Positions 141 to 53,309 of a DNA stretch of 55,145 nt are shown here, piece after piece. Position 1 is the first letter of the stretch. Every line of letters starts with the position of its first letter. Source of the DNA: Candidatus Bathyarchaeia archaeon (GTDB lineage Archaea > Thermoproteota > Bathyarchaeia > 40CM-2-53-6); contig JBEKSC010000019.1 in the NCBI GenBank assembly GCA_049517415.1, positions 1-55,145 on the forward strand. The letters run 5' to 3'. The position numbers and the translations under genes are program-made. The notes beneath the pieces were generated by a model. That model did not search any database. It saw only the letters and a program-made list of their open reading frames with translations, and was not told the origin of the DNA.

Positions 141-1689
<1,549 letters not shown>

Positions 1690-1748
1690 TGGCAAGCTGA
1701 CCGATTAGCTAGGACGATTTTTTGGAAAAACAGCCGTTTAAAGAAATT

Positions 1749-1783
1749 GAACGGACTGGAATTTAGCAGAATGACTGCAAGCC
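1749..1783 (-). other. 5' arm of the pre-16S processing stem (pairs with 92-129)
   Basis: Sense GGCUUGCAGUCAU...AUUCCAGUCCGUUC pairs with downstream GAACGGGCUGGAAU...AUGACUGUAAGCC, with a BHB-like bulged centre. Confidence 0.8.
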
Positions 1784-5816: not shown

Positions 5817-6115
5817 GGGTTGGCGAGTTGGTGAGCGACTCCGGGTCCTGTGTGTAGTGGGCCTGAGGAAACTCCATCCACATGGCGGACGCGTGGCACT
5901 GTGAGGTGCCAGCCGAGAGGTTGGGTTAAGGCGCAGAAAAAAACCTCTGCTAGCCGTGGACTATGATGCGCTTGCGTTGAGGAGGCTGGCGGTAAGGGTG
6001 AAATGCCTACACACGCTGTGAAAGGGATAATAGGCGCCCGTGAAAACCGCCGGAGGCGCGGGTATCCCGATTAGATGAATGTCGCCTAAAACAGAAGGTG
6101 GGTTACAGCCAACAC
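5817..6115 (+). ncRNA. rnpB: RNase P RNA
   Basis: GAGGAAACTCC (CR-I) and AACAGAAGGTGGGTTAC (CR-V); terminal GTTGGC/GCCAAC P1 pairing. Confidence 0.9.
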
Positions 6116-6332
6116 GCCGACCCGTTACATTATTTACCGCATTTTCAAAATCTCGCTTGTTTCCAGCTGTTTGCATTTCTGCTTGAACAATGTCGCTTTG
6201 TACGTGCATGTACGTACGTTTTCCAGTGGAGTCAGCGATTGCTTGCTCGGTTAGCCTGCTTGTATTAATTCCAAGAGCTTTTGCTTGCCGAACCAAATCG
6301 CTATCCACACGAAGAGTAAGCTTCTGTCTCAT
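5961..6332 (-). CDS. CcdA/RHH-like small DNA-binding (antitoxin-like) protein; the ORF tail runs antisense into rnpB
   Basis: MRQKLTLRVDSDLVRQAKALGINTSRLTEQAI resembles CcdA-family N-termini; the C-terminal part is just antisense rnpB. Confidence 0.55.
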   Translation of the reverse strand: MRQKLTLRVDSDLVRQAKALGINTSRLTEQAIADSTGKRTYMHVQSDIVQAEMQTAGNKRDFENAVNNVTGRRVGCNPPSVLGDIHLIGIPAPPAVFTGAYYPFHSVCRHFTLTASLLNASAS

Positions 6333-42130: not shown

Positions 42131-42277
42131 AGCGGGGTGGGGTAGCCAGGTTTAACCCGCAGAACCTTCCCGTGCGGAGGGCTCATATCCTGGCGAGAAA
42201 CCCTGAGATTGAGTTGAAAGACTCCTCAACCGGTGGTTCGAAAGGCCATAAGCCCGAACATCCACCCCCCGCTACCA
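42131..42277 (+). tRNA. Initiator tRNA-Met(CAU) with four introns (29/30, 37/38, 47/48, 59/60)
   Basis: Removing 42163-42179, 42188-42199, 42210-42230 and 42243-42260 gives AGCGGGGUGGGGUAGCCAGGUUUAACCCGCAGGGCUCAUAACCCUGAGAUCGGUGGUUCGAAUCCACCCCCCGCUACCA (79 nt; A1-U72, three G-C anticodon-stem pairs, encoded CCA). Confidence 0.92.
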
Positions 42278-45878: not shown

Positions 45879-45894
45879 TGATGGGGCGGGAGGG
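45879..45894 (-). repeat. 15/16-bp copy of the tRNA-Pro 3' end (att-like)
   Basis: TGATGGGGCGGGAGGG vs TGGTGGGGCGGGAGGG at 52406-52421. Confidence 0.5.
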
Positions 45895-46086
45895 CTTCAC
45901 ATCAAAGTTCATGTGGAGCCAGTCCATATGATTTAAACAGATTTTCTGAGCCGAATGCGCGTGTCATGCCTTCATCTTGGATTGGAATTACAGGTAGCTA
46001 ACCAGTTATTCATCACCATGGAACCGACCGATTCCTTCGCTTAAGCGGATACGGTGTGTTCTAGGATGTGGTGTGTGTAGGTTTGT

Positions 46087-47679
46087 CTATTCTGGTGGAA
46101 GTTCCTTGAATACTAGGCTAAAGTCGAGCCCTTGCTTCTTGAAGTACCATTTTGCGGCCGGGTAGGCTATCGCTCCCACTATCCAAATACCTAGGACCAA
46201 GCCCAGTGATGCCCACAATGTCAGTGATGGCGAAGCCCAGTTAAGGCCGAAGTATGGCAAGAAAAGATACTGGTATGTGATGTAGGCGAAGAATCCCATG
46301 ACGATCACGCCAGATAACATCAACCATGTAGACGCATTCTTCAAGTCGGCTCTCTTCTTCCAACCATAAACGATTGCGGTTATGCCAATGAATGCGAACC
46401 AAAGTGAGCCTTCAGCTGAGGTAACGAAGAGGGACAGCCAGCTCGTGAAGGAGGAGAAAAGAATCAACGGAACCGTTACAATGAATACGATAAGAATTGA
46501 CATGATTGGAGTGTGGAACCTGTCGCTGACACCAGCGAGTCTACGAGGAAGGATACCGTCAAAGGACATGGCTAGGATGTATCTGGAATCCGCAAGAATT
46601 GTTTGCTGAGCAGCCGCCAAATACCAGAACGCGAAGAAGATGTTCATTATCCAAATGAGCGCCGGGTTACTGCTAGCAGCGATGGTCGCTATGGTTAGCA
46701 TGTTCGGATACACCCCGTTACTCGAAAGGGCGGACGGCCACGACAATGGCGCCTGCATCGCGAAATTGAAACCTAAGTAACTGTAATACATTTGCAGGAA
46801 GATCATCAAGAGCGCCCCACCACCAATAACTGCGAGCACAGTCCCGTACAGAGCCGATTTCTTAATATTCTTCAATTCCCCGCCAAACGCCGCCGTGTTG
46901 TTAAAGTAAGGTAATGCGAACATGAGCCATGGAAAGAGAAGAACGATCGCACCAAAGTCAAGTCTTGAACCAGCGTATTGAGATGCTATGCCAGTGTACG
47001 TAGCATTGTTCTGCTGCAAAACTGCCGAAACGCTCGATTGAACACCACTCGGACCATTTACGACAAAAACGAGACCGACGATGATCATTCCGATTGTGCC
47101 GATTGCGGCGAAAACGGCGATGAGCCAGTAGGATCTTGCTGGCGACACGATGTTAACAGCCGTCAGCACGATCATTATCACTATGGAAACGACGGCCAAG
47201 AAAACGGGGGTTGTAAGCGAACTGGCCGCTGACGTGAGGCCCATATTGCCCGTGACCACTGCGATCGTTGAGATCGACGGCGATAACGCTAACGTGAACA
47301 TCCAATTCAGTGAGATTGCTATGAACGGAAACCCGGTGAAGAGAAAACCGTAGATTAGCACGGTTGGGATCCATGCGCCAATGTTTCTGCTCATCCATAC
47401 GTAGTCGCCTCCGGTCCGACCAACGGCGGGAATCATTCTAAAGTAAATGTAGGCTTCCAAGAGCGCTACGATAAGAAACAGCAACGTCGCAACAACAACA
47501 TCACCTCCTGGATTTCCGTTAGGGAAGAACGAGTCAACGTCATTCATGAGAAGAAGCTCGCTACCGAGACCGATCTCACCTATGCTCGCCCAAAGCATAA
47601 CCCAAGGGCTAATCGATTTCACAAGGCCTGTTGCTTCTCGGATGAAAACTGGAGCGTGTTTAGTCGTCAAGGATTCCAA
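46087..47679 (-). CDS. APC family amino acid/polyamine permease
   Basis: FIREATGLVK, RTGGDYVWMSR, GELKN, SRYILAMSFDGILP, FKELPPE. Confidence 0.92.
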   Translation of the reverse strand: MESLTTKHAPVFIREATGLVKSISPWVMLWASIGEIGLGSELLLMNDVDSFFPNGNPGGDVVVATLLFLIVALLEAYIYFRMIPAVGRTGGDYVWMSRNIGAWIPTVLIYGFLFTGFPFIAISLNWMFTLALSPSISTIAVVTGNMGLTSAASSLTTPVFLAVVSIVIMIVLTAVNIVSPARSYWLIAVFAAIGTIGMIIVGLVFVVNGPSGVQSSVSAVLQQNNATYTGIASQYAGSRLDFGAIVLLFPWLMFALPYFNNTAAFGGELKNIKKSALYGTVLAVIGGGALLMIFLQMYYSYLGFNFAMQAPLSWPSALSSNGVYPNMLTIATIAASSNPALIWIMNIFFAFWYLAAAQQTILADSRYILAMSFDGILPRRLAGVSDRFHTPIMSILIVFIVTVPLILFSSFTSWLSLFVTSAEGSLWFAFIGITAIVYGWKKRADLKNASTWLMLSGVIVMGFFAYITYQYLFLPYFGLNWASPSLTLWASLGLVLGIWIVGAIAYPAAKWYFKKQGLDFSLVFKELPPE

Positions 47680-47817
47680 TCATTGAAGCGGATTCTGGAA
47701 ATATATTAAACCTTTGTAGAAATCTGCGGCTGATGATCTTTCGCGGAATAAAGAAACAATTTGGGCTGCTCATCGTATGCGGGTAATTGGTTATCTTTCA
47801 CCGATTCTCGCTTCAAC

Positions 47818-48825
47818 TTAGATCAAACACTTCACGGCCTCTAGGCCAACTTGAAGCGCCTTGTCCTCGGCCATCCTCTTCATCTTCTCGTCTTCTACGA
47901 AAGATGAGCCCGGTAGAACGCCAACGACAGCCGAGACCATTCCGAAACGCGTCTCATGTGCTTGAGCTGCAACAGCTATTGCAGAGAGCTCCATTTCGGT
48001 CGTGCGGCAATTTTCAGTCTGGCAGAGGTGAAGGAAAATATCGGTACTGAGTTCAGCATATAGTGAGTCTTTAGTGACGTTTCCACCCTTTTGATACGCG
48101 CCCTTTGCTATTCGAGAGCCCGCGAACTCTATGGCGTCAACCACACCGCGGCTGCATTCGACTCTCGGATAGTTGCCTTTTGTAATGGTGAAATTTGGGC
48201 TGAGACTGGTCCACTTGGAGCGGAATTCCTCATAGGCTCCTGGATGCCAGAAGTCGAGTCGGAGCAGTGATTGCATGATAGCCCCTGTAGCGCCGATCGA
48301 ATGTGTCGCGTTGACAACGTCACCGAGCCGGACCGGCGGCATGCCCCCGCAGTTTATGCCACCAGCTGTGCCTATTCGAATTACAATCTTATTCGGCAGA
48401 CTGATCATTTTACCACTGATTCTGTACTCATTGCTGGTTAGCTTGTCCGAGAGAATCTCATTCATTATGATTTGAGTTGCAGAGGAGCCCATCTGCGTCT
48501 CTAATACCAGTACTGGGATCGACGCGATGGTTCCAATCACCATAGCTATGCGTCCAAACTCGGCGGTTGACGGCAGATTCTTGGTCTGAAGCTTTCGATT
48601 AGATAACTTTGCAGCAGTTTCCGGTATGAGTATAGGGTTTCGAAGCTTTCGTGCGATGGTGTACACCCGTCTCCGATCGCCGACTGCCAATACGATTGGC
48701 GGTGCGCGCCCCTCATTATCTTTCAGGTAAGGTATCCGATGCCAAACATGTGGTTTCTGATTGAGAAGCGATAGGGTCGTGTGGCGTCCTAGAAAATGCT
48801 GAGTCTCTCCGTCCAGCTGGCTCAT
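47818..48825 (-). CDS. Nucleoside (uridine-like) phosphorylase family protein
   Basis: VGDRRR, MGSSA, IRIGTAGG, DSLY, EME. Confidence 0.8.
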   Translation of the reverse strand: MSQLDGETQHFLGRHTTLSLLNQKPHVWHRIPYLKDNEGRAPPIVLAVGDRRRVYTIARKLRNPILIPETAAKLSNRKLQTKNLPSTAEFGRIAMVIGTIASIPVLVLETQMGSSATQIIMNEILSDKLTSNEYRISGKMISLPNKIVIRIGTAGGINCGGMPPVRLGDVVNATHSIGATGAIMQSLLRLDFWHPGAYEEFRSKWTSLSPNFTITKGNYPRVECSRGVVDAIEFAGSRIAKGAYQKGGNVTKDSLYAELSTDIFLHLCQTENCRTTEMELSAIAVAAQAHETRFGMVSAVVGVLPGSSFVEDEKMKRMAEDKALQVGLEAVKCLI

Positions 48826-48847
48826 CAGGTTATGCTCCTGTAAACAC

Positions 48848-49063
48848 CTAGGGTTTGAGGCCTTCGATGGTTCGAATGCCTCCCGCAGCTTTTACACCAA
48901 ACTCAGGCATGACAACTTCCCTCATGAGCCTAACGTCAGCTTCCGTTGCGCCGCTCTTGCCGAAACCGGTGGACGTCTTCAAGTAATCTGCTCTAGACTT
49001 CAAAGTCAGTTGACAAGCTTCCCTCTTCTCGCTGTCTGGTAGATAGCAGTTCCCAAGTATATG
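48848..49063 (-). pseudogene. deoC: Deoxyribose-phosphate aldolase remnant
   Basis: [28 protein letters not shown] only; N-terminal half missing, early stop. Confidence 0.85.
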
Positions 49064-49091
49064 GGCGCCTGAATTTGTGAGCTGATTTCCG

Positions 49092-50048
49092 CTACCCTTG
49101 GATGAGCAGATAGCTCTTGATTCCCTTCTCGTCCAAGTTGATAACGGCACCGCGTAAGATTCCTTGGCCATAGTCGCTTCCGGGGTTTATGCAAAGTGTC
49201 CGCCCTATCTTTACGAAACCTCGTGACTCGTGTATGTGTCCGTGAATGCCAAGAAGCGGCTGATTTTTCTCGATTGCTTGTCGCACAGCGATGCTTCCGA
49301 CGTGCACCATGCTGACGCTACTGCCACCGCTGAGCTTTGGTTTGAGAGTTTCATCAAGCTCGGGAGCGACATCTATGGGTGTATCGTAGGGCGGGCAGTG
49401 AAGGTTGAATATGCAGCTCCCCATTCGCTGAACCTTCGATGTCATTCGCTCGATGATCTCAGCGAGCTTCTCCTCCGTGGTTTCGCGTGGGCTATTCCAA
49501 GGAGTCGGGTTAGTCCAAGCGGTTGTGATCATCTCGTGCTGGTCGTCTATCCAGACCGTTTGATCCTCCGGGTACAGCACGAGAGAAGAGGATTTCAATA
49601 TTTCATCGATGTTGAATCTGTCGTCATTACCGGGGCTGATGTAGCACTTTGTGTTCGTTTCCTTCAGTCGCTCCTCGGCGATCTGAACCCAGCGCTTGAC
49701 GCCATCAGCCATAACTCTGGAGAAGAGCTCATCTTGGAGTTTCTTGTCGTTTGACAGTTTCTCCATCTCGTCAGGGTTAGTCATGTAAGGGTAGTAGCCG
49801 CTGTTACGAATGTTCTTCTCCAAACCGTCGCATTCCTCTTTCGTCTTGAGAATCTGTGTGGTTCCCAGGAACTCTGAGAAGTATGTTCCATCAGGTTGCT
49901 GCACTATTGGAACAATCATTTTCCCGGTAACATCGCCGCCCAGAATCAGGACATCAGCCTGATAGAACTTAGCGGCATTGATGAACTTCAGGAAGCAAAC
50001 ATCGGACCCGTGCACGTCAGAGGTAAAGAAAATCCTAGTTAAGCCCAT
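49092..50048 (-). CDS. Metallophosphoesterase (calcineurin-like)
   Basis: SDVHGS, GGD, PGNDD, HCPP, HGHIHES, NPGS. Confidence 0.9.
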
Positions 50049-50197
50049 AATGCGTTCACTACCTCACTCGGAATCGGCGTGCTGCGTAATTGTTCGCTCC
50101 GCTTTCTAAGCCTAATCCCTGAACCCACATTGCCAAAGAATTTGGTACGGATTCAGCTTTAATTCCTGCGCTGCTCCTCATACAAGGGGCAAGTTCC

Positions 50198-51145
50198 ATG
50201 ATTCACGAAGAGGTCTTGAAAGCCGTAGAAGACGTTCGGATTCGGCAAATGAGAGGCGGAACGATCGTCACTCACGTTGCTTTGATGGCACTGAGGTCTG
50301 CAGCTCAAGGATCAAAAGCTTCATCGCCCAAGGAATTCTCCTCTGAGCTTGAAGAGAACACGCGGTACTTGACGAACATACGAGCTGCTTCAATTCCACT
50401 CGCGAATGGCCTTCGCCATGTGGTATCTGAGGTTCAAAAGTCGATGGAACGCGGCTCAACTGTCCAAGAATTGAAGCAGGTGGTCTCGGAGGCCGCTACG
50501 ACGTTCGACAGGAAATTGGAAGAGTCGATACGGGAGATCGCAGAGATTGGCGCACGGAGGCTCAGGGACGGAGATGTGGTGATGACCCACAGCTACAGTA
50601 GCTCCGTCATAGCGATCTTAAAGAAAGCACACCAGCAAGGCAAACCCCTCAAAGTGTTTGTAACGGAAACACGTCCCGAGCTGGAGGGCCGAGATGTTGC
50701 TCGAGAACTTGCGGCGGAAGGAATCGATACAACTCTCATCATAGATTCTGCGGTTTCTCACTTCATTGAGAAAACAGATAAGGTCCTAGTTGGTTCTGAG
50801 GCCGTCGCCGCGAATGGTGCAATCGTAAACAAGATTGGTACGGCGACAATCGCAGCTGTAGCGCATGGAGCGCGCGTTCGAGTCTACGCTGCAGCTAGCA
50901 CATACAAGTTCAGCCCGGAAACGATGCTAGGAGAGTTGATCCAAATCGAAGAAAGAGATCCAGCATTTGTCTTGGATGACCAAGAGATGCGGAAGTTGCC
51001 TAACATCACAGTCAGGAACCCAGCGTTCGACGTCACTTCCCCACAAGACATTGACCTAATCATCACGGAACGTGGAGTCATTCCACCGCAGGCTGCCATA
51101 ATGATCGTACGAGAGCAGAGCGATCACCTTAGCTTTGCAGCCTGA
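50198..51145 (+). CDS. eIF2B/R15Pi family paralog lacking the catalytic Cys/Asp
   Basis: ETRP, NKIGT, NPAFDVT retained; THSYS and VGSEAV replace THCNS and VGADA. Confidence 0.88.
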   Translation: MIHEEVLKAVEDVRIRQMRGGTIVTHVALMALRSAAQGSKASSPKEFSSELEENTRYLTNIRAASIPLANGLRHVVSEVQKSMERGSTVQELKQVVSEAATTFDRKLEESIREIAEIGARRLRDGDVVMTHSYSSSVIAILKKAHQQGKPLKVFVTETRPELEGRDVARELAAEGIDTTLIIDSAVSHFIEKTDKVLVGSEAVAANGAIVNKIGTATIAAVAHGARVRVYAAASTYKFSPETMLGELIQIEERDPAFVLDDQEMRKLPNITVRNPAFDVTSPQDIDLIITERGVIPPQAAIMIVREQSDHLSFAA

Positions 51146-51212
51146 GAATCTGAATTTAAGTCAAACAAGTCTTATGTGACTCGGGGAAGGCCTTCACTGT
51201 GTGGTTGATGCT

Positions 51213-51371
51213 TTGAAGATAATCGGTAGTTCAGCGTCAGACACCCTTACTGCTAAGGTAGTGCGTGGGCTCGGGACGAATTCACTGAAGCTGGAAATCA
51301 AGAAATTTCCAGACGGAGAGAGAAATACGTCACTGATCCTGGAACAGATCAAGAAGGAAGGGTTTAGGTGA
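51213..51371 (+). pseudogene. prs: Ribose-phosphate pyrophosphokinase remnant
   Basis: MKIIGSSAS..L..KV...LG......EIKKFPDGE; an extra AG shifts the following KYV; nearly the whole gene is deleted. Confidence 0.75.
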
Positions 51372-52357
51372 AACTCCCTGACGAAGCGGACAGAATAGCC
51401 GACGGCATAAGAAGCATGCGCATCCGCGGCGCAGGTCTAATTGCACGCTCCGCGGTGGAAGCGCTCCAAATAGTGGCTCAAGATTCAAAGGCAAATGACA
51501 TCGAGAGCTTCATCAACGAACTAACGGACGCCGCCAGAATCCTGCTGCAAACTAGGCCGACAGCAGTTTCACTGCCAAATGGGATCAGGTACGTGATGCA
51601 CAGAGTCAATGCTGCACGAAACCGAGCAGGCTCAATCGAGGAGATTAGAGCTATTGCCACAAGAGCCGCGGAGGAGTTCATTGAGAACGCCAAGACCGCT
51701 GTTCAGAGGATCGGTGAGATCGGGGCGAGGAGGATTCGTGATGGTGATGTTCTTCTAACGCACTGTAATAGCGGGGCCGCTATTGAGATTATGAAAACTG
51801 CTTGGAAGGAAGGTAGAAAGTTCAAAGTTCTCGTCACTGAGACCCGGCCTAGATTCCAGGGCCATATTACTGCTCGGGAACTCGCCAAGGCAGGGATACC
51901 GGTCACCCTGATCTTGGATGATGCAGTCAGATACTTCATGCAGCTTGTTGACAAAGTCATCGTCGGTGCAGATGCGATCACGGCTAATGGCGCATTGGTG
52001 AACAAGATTGGGACTTCAATGGTTGCACTCGCTGCGCATGAAGCTCGAGTGCGCGTGTTTGTGGCGGCTGAAACCTACAAGTTCAGCCCCGAAACCATGA
52101 TTGGAGAACTGGTCACGATTGAGGAGCGGGATCCCTCCGAAATAATCTCGGATGAACAGCGAAGGCGAATAGGATCAATCAAGGTTCTGAATCCCTCCTT
52201 CGACGTGACCCCCGCTGAGTACATAGACCTGATAATAACCGAACGCGGAATAATCCCGCCACTCGGGGCCATACTGATTCTGGAAGAGGTATTCGGAGTT
52301 CTCACTCCCGAAGAACTTCGCGAATACCAAACCTACTCGCTGGAGGAAGAAGCTTAG
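51368..52357 (+). CDS. Ribose-1,5-bisphosphate isomerase (eIF2B family)
   Basis: IRGAG.IA, TRPTAVSL.N, THCNS, ETRP, VGADAI, NKIGT. Confidence 0.9.
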   Translation: MKLPDEADRIADGIRSMRIRGAGLIARSAVEALQIVAQDSKANDIESFINELTDAARILLQTRPTAVSLPNGIRYVMHRVNAARNRAGSIEEIRAIATRAAEEFIENAKTAVQRIGEIGARRIRDGDVLLTHCNSGAAIEIMKTAWKEGRKFKVLVTETRPRFQGHITARELAKAGIPVTLILDDAVRYFMQLVDKVIVGADAITANGALVNKIGTSMVALAAHEARVRVFVAAETYKFSPETMIGELVTIEERDPSEIISDEQRRRIGSIKVLNPSFDVTPAEYIDLIITERGIIPPLGAILILEEVFGVLTPEELREYQTYSLEEEA

Positions 52358-52405
52358 CCAAGTCGGTGCATCTTCGACAAACCACGGGAGCAGGCCCGGG
52401 TCGAA

Positions 52406-52580
52406 TGGTGGGGCGGGAGGGAATATCATGACCTTCCCGGTCATTTTGAACCCTCGATCACCGGTGTACTCGCTGTTCAGTATTTTTGGTCCCGAGACCG
52501 GTTTCAAGGCGAACTGTATTCGCTATCTTAGACCAAGTTGTCCCCACGATGGGTAGACTCGTGGCCTGGACCACCGCCCC
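52406..52580 (-). tRNA. tRNA-Pro(CGG) with four introns (15/16, 25/26, 37/38, 59/60)
   Basis: Removing 52538-52565, 52503-52524, 52467-52490 and 52423-52444 gives GGGGCGGUGGUCCAGCUUGGUCUAAGAUACCGGUCUCGGGCACCGGUGAUCGAGGGUUCAAAUCCCUCCCGCCCCACCA (79 nt, G37, encoded CCA). Confidence 0.9.
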
Positions 52581-52606: not shown

Positions 52607-52612
52607 CTTAAA
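52607..52612 (-). promoter_or_regulatory. Putative TATA box for tRNA-Pro
   Basis: TTTAAG about 27 nt upstream of G1. Confidence 0.55.
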
Positions 52613-52616
52613 TGCT

Positions 52617-53132
52617 TCACAGCCTGATCTTTGGCTTAACCGCAAACTTATCGGAAGAGCTTTCCCTTTTCCTGCGGATGTAACCTAGGTATTCGAAGGC
52701 GATTAACGCCGAATTGCGCACGTCCTCGTCTTCATCTTCAATCGCCTTCTTCAGATCGGGAATCACTTCATCGTCGCCTATGGAACTCAATGCTACAGCT
52801 GATTCGTGTCGAACGATTGGGCTCTCGTCATGAAGCATCGCCTCAACCAATGCGGGTACCGCAGAACGGTAACCCAACTGGCTCAGGGTAAACGCAGCCT
52901 CATGCCTTGTAAGCGGGCTTACATCTTCTGCGAGGACCATACACAATGACTCCACCATTTCCTCGCTTCCAATGTGCTCAAGCATACAGACTGAGTGGAC
53001 GCGCAGTAGGAGAGGGAGCCCCTTCGAGTTTTGGAGAAAAGATTTGAAGAATGAAAGGTCCTTTCTTTCGAACGCATCTTCCAATTTCGCTAGTATCGTG
53101 TAATCGTCGTCCCGCATTCGCATTTCATCCAT
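52617..53132 (-). CDS. HEAT/PBS-lyase repeat protein with two His-Glu motifs (DOHH-like)
   Basis: PLTRHEAAFTLSQLG, PIVRHESAVALSSIG. Confidence 0.8.
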   Translation of the reverse strand: MDEMRMRDDDYTILAKLEDAFERKDLSFFKSFLQNSKGLPLLLRVHSVCMLEHIGSEEMVESLCMVLAEDVSPLTRHEAAFTLSQLGYRSAVPALVEAMLHDESPIVRHESAVALSSIGDDEVIPDLKKAIEDEDEDVRNSALIAFEYLGYIRRKRESSSDKFAVKPKIRL

Positions 53133-53309
53133 TACCAATCCACCCGCGCAAGATTGAAAACCCTCGCATATTGAGCTAAGATAAGGATTCTCAATCATGG
53201 TAGGTGCGGAAATTTCGGGTTTCTTCGAAGGAATCACGCATAACTACAATTTTTTAAACATCGATTCATGCCTATAGTGGTTGCGAGCCACCTTCTAGGC
53301 GGTAATTGT

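Follow-up and report, generated by a model that had tools for sequence, protein, structure and literature searches.

A tRNA-Pro(CGG) gene with four introns in a Bathyarchaeia genome in which nearly all tRNA genes are interrupted

The window analysed here is a stretch of 55,145 nt from a Candidatus Bathyarchaeia archaeon (contig JBEKSC010000019.1, assembly GCA_049517415.1). Near one end, on the minus strand, the original prediction placed a tRNA-Pro(CGG) gene broken up by four introns. Is this a working tRNA gene, how could so fragmented a transcript be spliced, and why does it hold so many introns? ARAGORN reported no tRNA gene in the raw window, and an Rfam search at the gathering score missed the unspliced Pro gene, detecting only two other RNA genes on the same contig:

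141-1689, minus strand: archaeal 16S rRNA gene
5823-6117, plus strand: RNase P RNA

The Pro gene occupies positions 52406-52580 of the minus strand, 175 nt in all, with five exons of 15, 13, 12, 22 and 17 nt separated by introns of 28, 22, 24 and 22 nt at positions 15/16, 25/26, 37/38 and 59/60; intron makes up 96 of the 175 nt. These sizes and positions had been predicted together with the helices described below, and every feature is present in the sequence. In the direction of transcription the locus reads as follows (fractions of 19 refer to an alignment of this gene with 18 orthologues):

52617-53237, minus strand: HEAT-repeat gene (Pfam), the upstream neighbour, present at 16 of the 18 orthologue loci
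52607-52618, minus strand: promoter-like site, a purine-rich BRE-like GAAG at 52618-52615 and a TATA-like TTTAAG at 52612-52607
52566-52580, minus strand: exon 1, tRNA positions 1-15, 15 nt, unchanged in 19/19
52538-52565, minus strand: intron 1 at 15/16, 28 nt, relaxed HBh' motif, loop CCC at 52553-52551
52525-52537, minus strand: exon 2, tRNA positions 16-25, 13 nt, D-loop and 3' strand of the D-stem
52503-52524, minus strand: intron 2 at 25/26, 22 nt, HBh' motif, outer helix absent, seen in this genus only
52491-52502, minus strand: exon 3, tRNA positions 26-37, 12 nt, anticodon CGG at 52494-52492
52467-52490, minus strand: intron 3 at the canonical 37/38 site, 24 nt, hBH motif, inner stem of 1 bp
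52445-52466, minus strand: exon 4, tRNA positions 38-59, 22 nt
52423-52444, minus strand: intron 4 at 59/60, 22 nt, hBHBh' motif, U.U mismatch ending the central helix
52406-52422, minus strand: exon 5, tRNA positions 60-76, 17 nt, CCA encoded, its last 16 nt one copy of the direct repeat of an island

With the inserts removed, ARAGORN folds the remaining 79 nt into a canonical cloverleaf with its anticodon and calls it tRNA-Pro(cgg), CCA encoded. It is the only CGG gene among the 46 tRNA genes of the genome. An intron-aware scorer written for this analysis gave it 90.4, whereas no score among 73 candidates in the reversed genome exceeded 18.6. All exons lie in cis and in order inside the 175 nt, so this is neither a split nor a permuted tRNA gene. 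The region had been called GC-rich; it is richer than the window as a whole, but only mildly (56% versus 51%). The predicted TTTAAG box lies 32 nt before G1, and the GAAG beside it overlaps the stop codon of the HEAT-repeat gene. Within this site AAG and TTT(A/T)A are invariant in 19/19 sequences while most of the leader varies, the A at -1 is likewise invariant across the alignment, and a similar T/A box at -28 to -36 precedes about half of the 46 tRNA genes. The TATA-like box and the invariant A suggest that the gene has its own promoter and a very short leader. The HEAT-repeat gene is a conserved neighbour, and any role here is putative at most. Overall, the Pro gene is a real, functional-looking new example of a known archaeal oddity, with no new mechanism.

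A strict or relaxed bulge-helix-bulge (BHB) motif can be drawn at every junction (HBh', HBh', hBH and hBHBh' for introns 1-4). The central helices have 4/4, 4/4 (one U.G), 4/4 and 3/4 (U.U) pairs and the inner stems 6, 6, 1 and 5 bp. Intron 1 combines its 4-bp central helix and 6-bp inner stem with an outer helix of at most one G.U pair. Three of the four introns are thus relaxed: introns 1 and 2 are without an outer helix, and intron 3 has an inner stem of 1-2 bp. Shuffled introns reached the observed helix lengths 1, 0, 21 and 31 times per 20,000 (introns 1-4), in a test that is not blind since the junctions had been picked by motif beforehand. Three of the intron boundaries are unique. For intron 2 the sequence also allows a shift of one base (to 26/27), with 25/26 preferred on BHB geometry. 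The outer pairs of intron 2 form in 0/19 orthologues, and the end pair of the central helix is loose, pairing in 11/19 for intron 2 and in 6/19 for intron 4.

We searched the DNA of 40 relatives (22 of the same genus and 18 outside it) for orthologues. A Pro(CGG) orthologue was located in 18 of the 22 same-genus genomes, and all 18 have the same four intron sites. It was not found in the other four (G003, G008, G015 and G016, which are 78, 76, 92 and 96% complete); the exon-1 matches in G003 and G008 come from Pro(TGG) genes, and G015 has no more of the gene than a copy of exon 5. In the resulting alignment, whose 19 rows are all kin, only two exon columns vary and the trailer shows no conservation, whilst intron lengths range over 24-28, 18-25, 14-26 and 21-28 nt (introns 1-4). 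The four-motif structure is paired in 94.9% of 968 cells, and five pairs, all in intron stems and two of them in the inner stem of intron 4, have changed on both sides. None of 500 shuffles reached that number (the shuffles ignore relatedness), and controls in which the structure was slid along the alignment gave 0-4 such pairs with 44-52% of cells paired.

Outside the genus, the Pro gene could be parsed in eight of the 18 genomes searched; among the other ten, the loci examined were different tRNAs. G023 and G024 have introns at 15/16 and 23/24, and G025, G026, G031, G035, G038 and G039 at 37/38 (one parsed as 36/37) and 59/60. In these other Bathyarchaeia genera two or three of the four introns are therefore absent and the exons are joined. 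A pattern scan of the genome collection, which overlaps the relatives already searched, recovered 37 loci: 19 with four introns, 13 with introns at 37(36) and 59 (the finder misplaced the anticodon-loop intron in two of these), four with 15 and 23(21), and one with 37 only. The pattern requires unbroken exon 3 and exon 4 stretches, so genes interrupted there escape it. Exons 3 and 4 are contiguous in L037, L044, L056 and L061, and exons 1 and 2 in relatives from other families. Since every one of the four introns is missing from at least one relative, the exon boundaries are fixed independently of the motif. Thirty of the 37 loci are titled Bathyarchaeia or Bathyarchaeota and none Asgard. The records holding L037, L041, L047 and L065 have bacterial names around an archaeal Pro gene and are probably mislabelled or misbinned.

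Within one order, then, the Pro gene has one, two or four introns. By parsimony on the GTDB labels, the 37/38 and 59/60 introns would be old, the 15/16 intron gained in the family and the 25/26 intron in the genus, with both 3' introns lost in sister genera; we are unsure of this history. In a single-gene EndA tree the four-intron genus forms one clade (100/100) and is not joined to the two genera that GTDB places in its family.

Two separate, single-unit EndA genes (PF01974) are present, on C10 and C2. The 190-aa alpha subunit has its best matches among Aeropyrum and other crenarchaeal catalytic subunits (A. pernix-type 3p1z_B, E 7.5e-39), and its Lys43 and Lys45 lie opposite Lys44 and Arg46 of the A. 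pernix specificity loop. It keeps Tyr127, His135 and Lys166, which we take to be the EndA catalytic triad; the 187-aa beta subunit is without the His. RtcB is also encoded (E 3.4e-172). The available text of PMC3241643 ascribes broad specificity, with cleavage of relaxed and D-loop motifs, to Lys44 in the Crenarchaea-specific loop, and by analogy the enzyme here would be an (alpha-beta)2 heterotetramer able to cut relaxed motifs. Alpha subunits from the genus share 76-93% identity with the one described here. All 30 alpha subunits examined in relatives, including that of the low-load genome G039, preserve the loop and the catalytic motifs, so the enzyme permits a high intron load and does not explain it. 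The Asgard preprint likewise treats EndA as permissive rather than explanatory (bioRxiv 10.64898/2026.10.13.758758).

Taking these results as a whole, we are confident that the best explanation is a single functional Pro(CGG) gene whose four BHB introns are spliced by the alpha-beta EndA and RtcB and are passengers, within a family-wide intron load. A TATA promoter of its own would drive transcription of the gene, yielding a precursor of about 175 nt that already includes the CCA. Each intron, with its neighbouring exon, could form the local strict or relaxed BHB that is seen in the sequence and conserved. By what is known of archaeal splicing, a two-subunit (alpha-beta)2 EndA with the Crenarchaea-specific loop would cut both bulges and RtcB would join the exons, four such cycles giving the 79-nt tRNA. 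The introns would then be tolerated passengers held in a spliceable state, with stems that covary and loops that mostly drift, and the Pro gene would sit at the top end of the family-wide load under a broad enzyme that permits it and does not explain it.

The four central helices lie on separate exon stretches, so no intron is strictly nested or dependent on earlier removal of another. The precursor is nonetheless not expected to show all four motifs together: a ground state with every motif formed was rejected, as that fold lies 11-23 kcal/mol above the minimum-energy fold at 37 C in 19/19 orthologues, and the consensus fold of the alignment replaces both D-arm central helices by other pairings. 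The motifs would thus probably form one or two at a time, helped by the enzyme. Within the full precursor, the motifs of introns 1-4 cost a median of 3.1, 1.2, 5.8 and 3.5 kcal/mol to form (1.2, 0.9, 4.9 and 3.5 kcal/mol in this genome). These values fall inside the range for the 109 introns of the genome that were tested (quartiles 1.6/4.8/7.7 kcal/mol). Since single motifs cost energy, the enzyme must stabilise them. The modelled energies suggest that the D-arm introns go early and the 37/38 intron late.

The view of the introns as passengers is dented by two sets of invariant unpaired bases. Intron 1 is 27-28 nt long in 18/19 rows and has the loop CCC in 19/19; unlike this CCC, no loop column of introns 2-4 and no trailer column is invariant. 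In intron 3 the third base is an invariant C whose motif partner pairs in only 7/19. In silico, the CCC pairs with a GGG within intron 1 itself and exon 1 with bases spanning the start of intron 3, which weakens motif 1. The introns could accordingly be read as an ordered-splicing switch, in which the CCC-GGG helix and the pairing of exon 1 with the exon 3-intron 3 junction hide motifs 1 and 3 for as long as intron 2 (or 3) is in place, allowing only one cut-and-join at a time in the D-arm. The median cost of motif 1 is 3.1 kcal/mol in the natural sequences versus 0.6 with the CCC replaced, falls to 1.1 without intron 2 and 1.0 without intron 3 (lower in 17/19 each), and the exon 1/intron 3 pairing has a probability of 0.76 or more in 13/19. 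We nevertheless think such a switch unlikely. Its effect in this genome is just 1.2 versus 0.6 kcal/mol, and even the 3.1 kcal/mol median lies below the 4.8 kcal/mol median of the genome's introns. Internal exons of 5-8 nt are common in the genome (20/65), so a 13-nt exon needs no special guard. The alternative helices lack compensatory changes and consist mostly of invariant exon bases; the 19 rows are kin; and no such masking occurs in six sister-genus genes. The CCC could instead bind a protein or pair with the T-arm, a pairing beyond the reach of covariation since the T-arm is invariant. If the switch did exist, which we doubt, the order in which this tRNA is spliced would be encoded in the sequence of the gene throughout the genus; the literature searched reports no such regulatory role for short BHB introns.

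Why this gene is so interrupted can be judged against the rest of the genome. A BHB-aware, genome-wide intron census combined our own intron-aware finder with hand correction of seven genes, and all spliced products were folded by ARAGORN. The finder itself uses the motif, so motif statistics on the census are circular. The 46 tRNA genes make up the usual archaeal anticodon set, three CAT genes included. Introns interrupt 45 of them (98%); there are 110 introns, 2.39 per gene with a median of 22 nt, of which five have at most two central pairs and uncertain ends, and inserts of 40-63 nt may hide nested introns. One gene has no intron, nine have one, 17 two, 10 three, eight four and one (Trp) five. 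The introns occupy 30 labelled positions, and 23 of the introns are labelled 37/38. Some of the 28 calls that ARAGORN made on the genome have the wrong isotype; one of these, on C5, is labelled 'Pro(cgg)' and parses as Ser(GCT).

The second tRNA gene of the window also has four introns, as predicted:

42131-42277, plus strand: initiator-type tRNA-Met(CAT), introns at 29/30, 37/38, 47/48 and 59/60

Four other same-genus genomes also have an initiator-type Met gene as a neighbour of the Pro gene; three of these Met genes have four introns and one has three. From this pair of genes, genome-wide hyper-fragmentation had been proposed. The proposal holds in that nearly every tRNA gene is interrupted, but four introns represent the top of the range: nine of the 46 genes have four or more, and the chance of drawing two such genes is about 3.5%.

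Loads in relatives were parsed only in Rfam-seeded regions, where seeding favours simple genes and the estimates are therefore low; the 25 Rfam-listed genes of this genome average 1.8 introns by hand count versus 2.39 overall. On this basis G023 has 76 introns in 37 loci (uncurated), G039 45 introns in 38 loci, 12 of them intronless (uncurated, with two near-duplicate loci and at least one false call), and G025 22 introns in 13 loci (partial and uncurated). Genome loads within the order thus run from about 1.2 to 2.4 introns per gene. The heavy load looks family-wide, and the one other family sampled in depth has about half of it.

Several other genes from the census and its relatives deserve mention in their own right. 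The most interrupted is:

G000:C24:5192-5420, minus strand: tRNA-Trp(CCA), five introns, which equals the published maximum

A six-intron parse of this gene was dropped, the hand parse giving five introns with one 61-nt insert at 37/38. Within that insert, one segment is complementary to its own 3' junction and a word resembles a C box; these are conserved in L027, L030, L032 and G039. A box C/D guide is known in tRNA-Trp introns (PMC4090602, available text), and the insert is probably that guide, its degenerate boxes being judged by eye. In L027 (G032, 1504-1778, minus strand) the Trp gene is about 275 nt long with an insert of about 90 nt near 28/29, which may contain nested introns and makes the gene a candidate for more than five. 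The tRNA-Glu(TTC) gene (G000:C28:31772-31921, plus strand) has a 31-nt insert near 38-40 that lacks a good motif, with 1/4 central pairs, and is possibly nested or misplaced. U is near-universal at tRNA position 33. The tRNA-Arg TCT and CCT genes (G000:C1:94777-94896 and C2:49682-49827), both AGR-reading, have C at this position as parsed, adjoining intron ends that are uncertain.

The four introns could also have arrived through recent copying between tRNA genes, as in the Thermoproteales. Some resemblances exist: intron 1 shares 10 of 11 end-anchored bases with the 21/22 intron of Gln(CTG), and intron 2 shares 9 of 11 with each of the 59/60 introns of Glu(CTC) and Thr(GGT). Such look-alike pairs are no commoner than expected. 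Among the 88 of 110 introns of at least 17 nt there were 12 pairs at a threshold of at least 9, against a null mean of 10.8 (71 of 200 nulls were as high), and 3 against 1.9 at a threshold of at least 10. The Pro and Met 59/60 introns do not align convincingly either, in agreement with the claim that they are not one recent copy. As the sites are shared over a genus whose EndA alpha subunits share 76-93% identity with the one here, they are not recent, and we regard recent copying as improbable. Older copying between tRNA genes could have taken place.

The 3' end of the Pro gene bears on another explanation for the introns. Integrative islands that target archaeal tRNA genes are bounded on either side by directly repeated copies of the tRNA 3' end. 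Here we found both such a repeat and an empty site in a relative:

45895-52405, no strand assigned: insert at the tRNA 3' end, 6,511 bp, with no such insert at this site in G014
45879-45894, minus strand: second copy of the exon-5 repeat, 15/16 nt identical, at the far end of the insert

In the sister genome G014 the tRNA gene is followed immediately by the sequence that in this genome lies beyond the second repeat copy, and G014 matches the insert in two pieces only, at 66% identity. The empty site and the flanking repeat together indicate that the 6,511 bp were inserted at the 3' end of the Pro gene. By Pfam, the six main ORFs of the island are an amino-acid permease, a member of the nucleoside phosphorylase family, a metallophosphoesterase, two IF-2B-family proteins and a 107-aa protein without family. 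No integrase Pfam family was found in the search, which covered these six main ORFs. Judged by these families, the island looks like a nucleoside-salvage cargo without an integrase.

It has been proposed for Sulfolobus viruses (PMC4090602, in its available text) that tRNA introns shield the gene from integrating elements, and the Pro introns could have been kept for that reason. The island repeat does stop at the 59/60 junction, so any longer target would be interrupted there. But the four-intron Pro gene has itself been integrated into, via exon 5 alone; its introns did not prevent this. G015 too has a lone exon-5 copy, and a BLAST search with the 46 genes gave 26 extra matches, mostly 3'-end copies, at 13 other places, one with a diverged 59/60 intron. 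Retention of the introns as a shield is accordingly unlikely. Introns may narrow the targets of integration; they do not block it. The copy with an intron lies at G000:C16:41984-42124 (minus strand). Over its 141 nt it matches the 3' half of tRNA-Leu(TAG) at 87% and holds a diverged 66-nt version of that gene's 63-nt 59/60 intron, and so is an att-like repeat with an intron. Other tRNA 3'-end copies were seen on C2, C4, C7, C9, C11, C12, C16, C34 and C35.

The weakest alternative, that the Pro gene is a decayed pseudogene or an artefact of assembly or binning and that CCG is read by tRNA-Pro(UGG), could draw on a genome contamination of 6.86%, on the failure of standard tools to call the gene and on its absence from the 96%-complete G016, but is scarcely credible given two variable exon columns in 19 genomes while intron loops and flanks diverge, a retained promoter box and CCA, covarying intron stems and its place as the sole CGG gene.

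We therefore return to the functional gene with passenger introns, which has parallels in three known settings. In the available text of two reviews the archaeal maximum is three introns per gene and the record is 71 introns in 46 genes, in Pyrobaculum calidifontis (PMC8450103, PMC4033280). As described there for the Thermoproteales, the introns here are cis-spliced BHB introns at many positions, alongside an (alpha-beta)2 EndA with the specificity loop. Unlike that account, there are four in the Pro gene and 110 in the genome, and whereas the Thermoproteales are marked in these sources by intron sequences shared between tRNAs, no such excess was found. Asgard archaea are closer. They have a mean of 2.20 introns per gene, family means of up to 2.42 and up to five per gene (bioRxiv 10.64898/2026.10.13.758758), with 228 introns in three genomes (PMC11291895); four introns in one gene is thus no record. 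The two share interruption of >90% of genes and a mean above two (here 98% and 2.39, with a maximum of five and a median of 22 nt, against 22-23 nt in Asgard), many D-arm sites, a two-subunit EndA as permissive background and almost no intron families across tRNAs. The present case differs in its lineage, an unrelated class, Bathyarchaeia being a word absent from the preprint. It also differs in that relatives without the introns establish the boundaries of one gene, and in that an island has integrated at the last exon of this gene.

The three-intron tRNA-Ile(UAU) of Cyanidioschyzon merolae similarly combines D-arm, 37/38 and T-loop introns in one gene. According to the available text of PMC3728597, the flanking introns are removed before that at 37/38, with intermediates seen by RT-PCR, and this is the order favoured by the folding energies here. 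That system differs in its eukaryotic enzyme and its total of three introns. The island resembles other archaeal tRNA-targeted islands in its direct repeats and the empty site of a sister genome, and differs from them in having six ORFs without an integrase and a repeat confined to the last exon. The literature searched, which lay mostly outside subscription journals, held no report on Bathyarchaeia tRNA introns and no statement of 'four introns' in an archaeal tRNA gene; the Asgard supplementary tables may list a four-intron Pro(CGG). New here are exon 5 as the integration site of a 6.5-kb island and the invariant CCC of intron 1, which weakens its own motif in silico.

Besides the Thermoproteales and Asgard archaea, this is a third lineage in which nearly all tRNA genes are interrupted, with a load equal to the highest in print. 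Such genes are missed by standard annotation, as the absence of any ARAGORN call in the window illustrates. That an island has integrated at exon 5 speaks against the idea that introns generally protect tRNA genes from mobile elements. With one, two or four introns in the same gene, loads of ~1.2-2.4 per gene and an unchanged EndA loop, the relatives offer a natural series for the question of how introns are gained and retained, and the 175-nt precursor, in which four motif types come together, lends itself to the question of whether multiple introns are spliced out in a set order.
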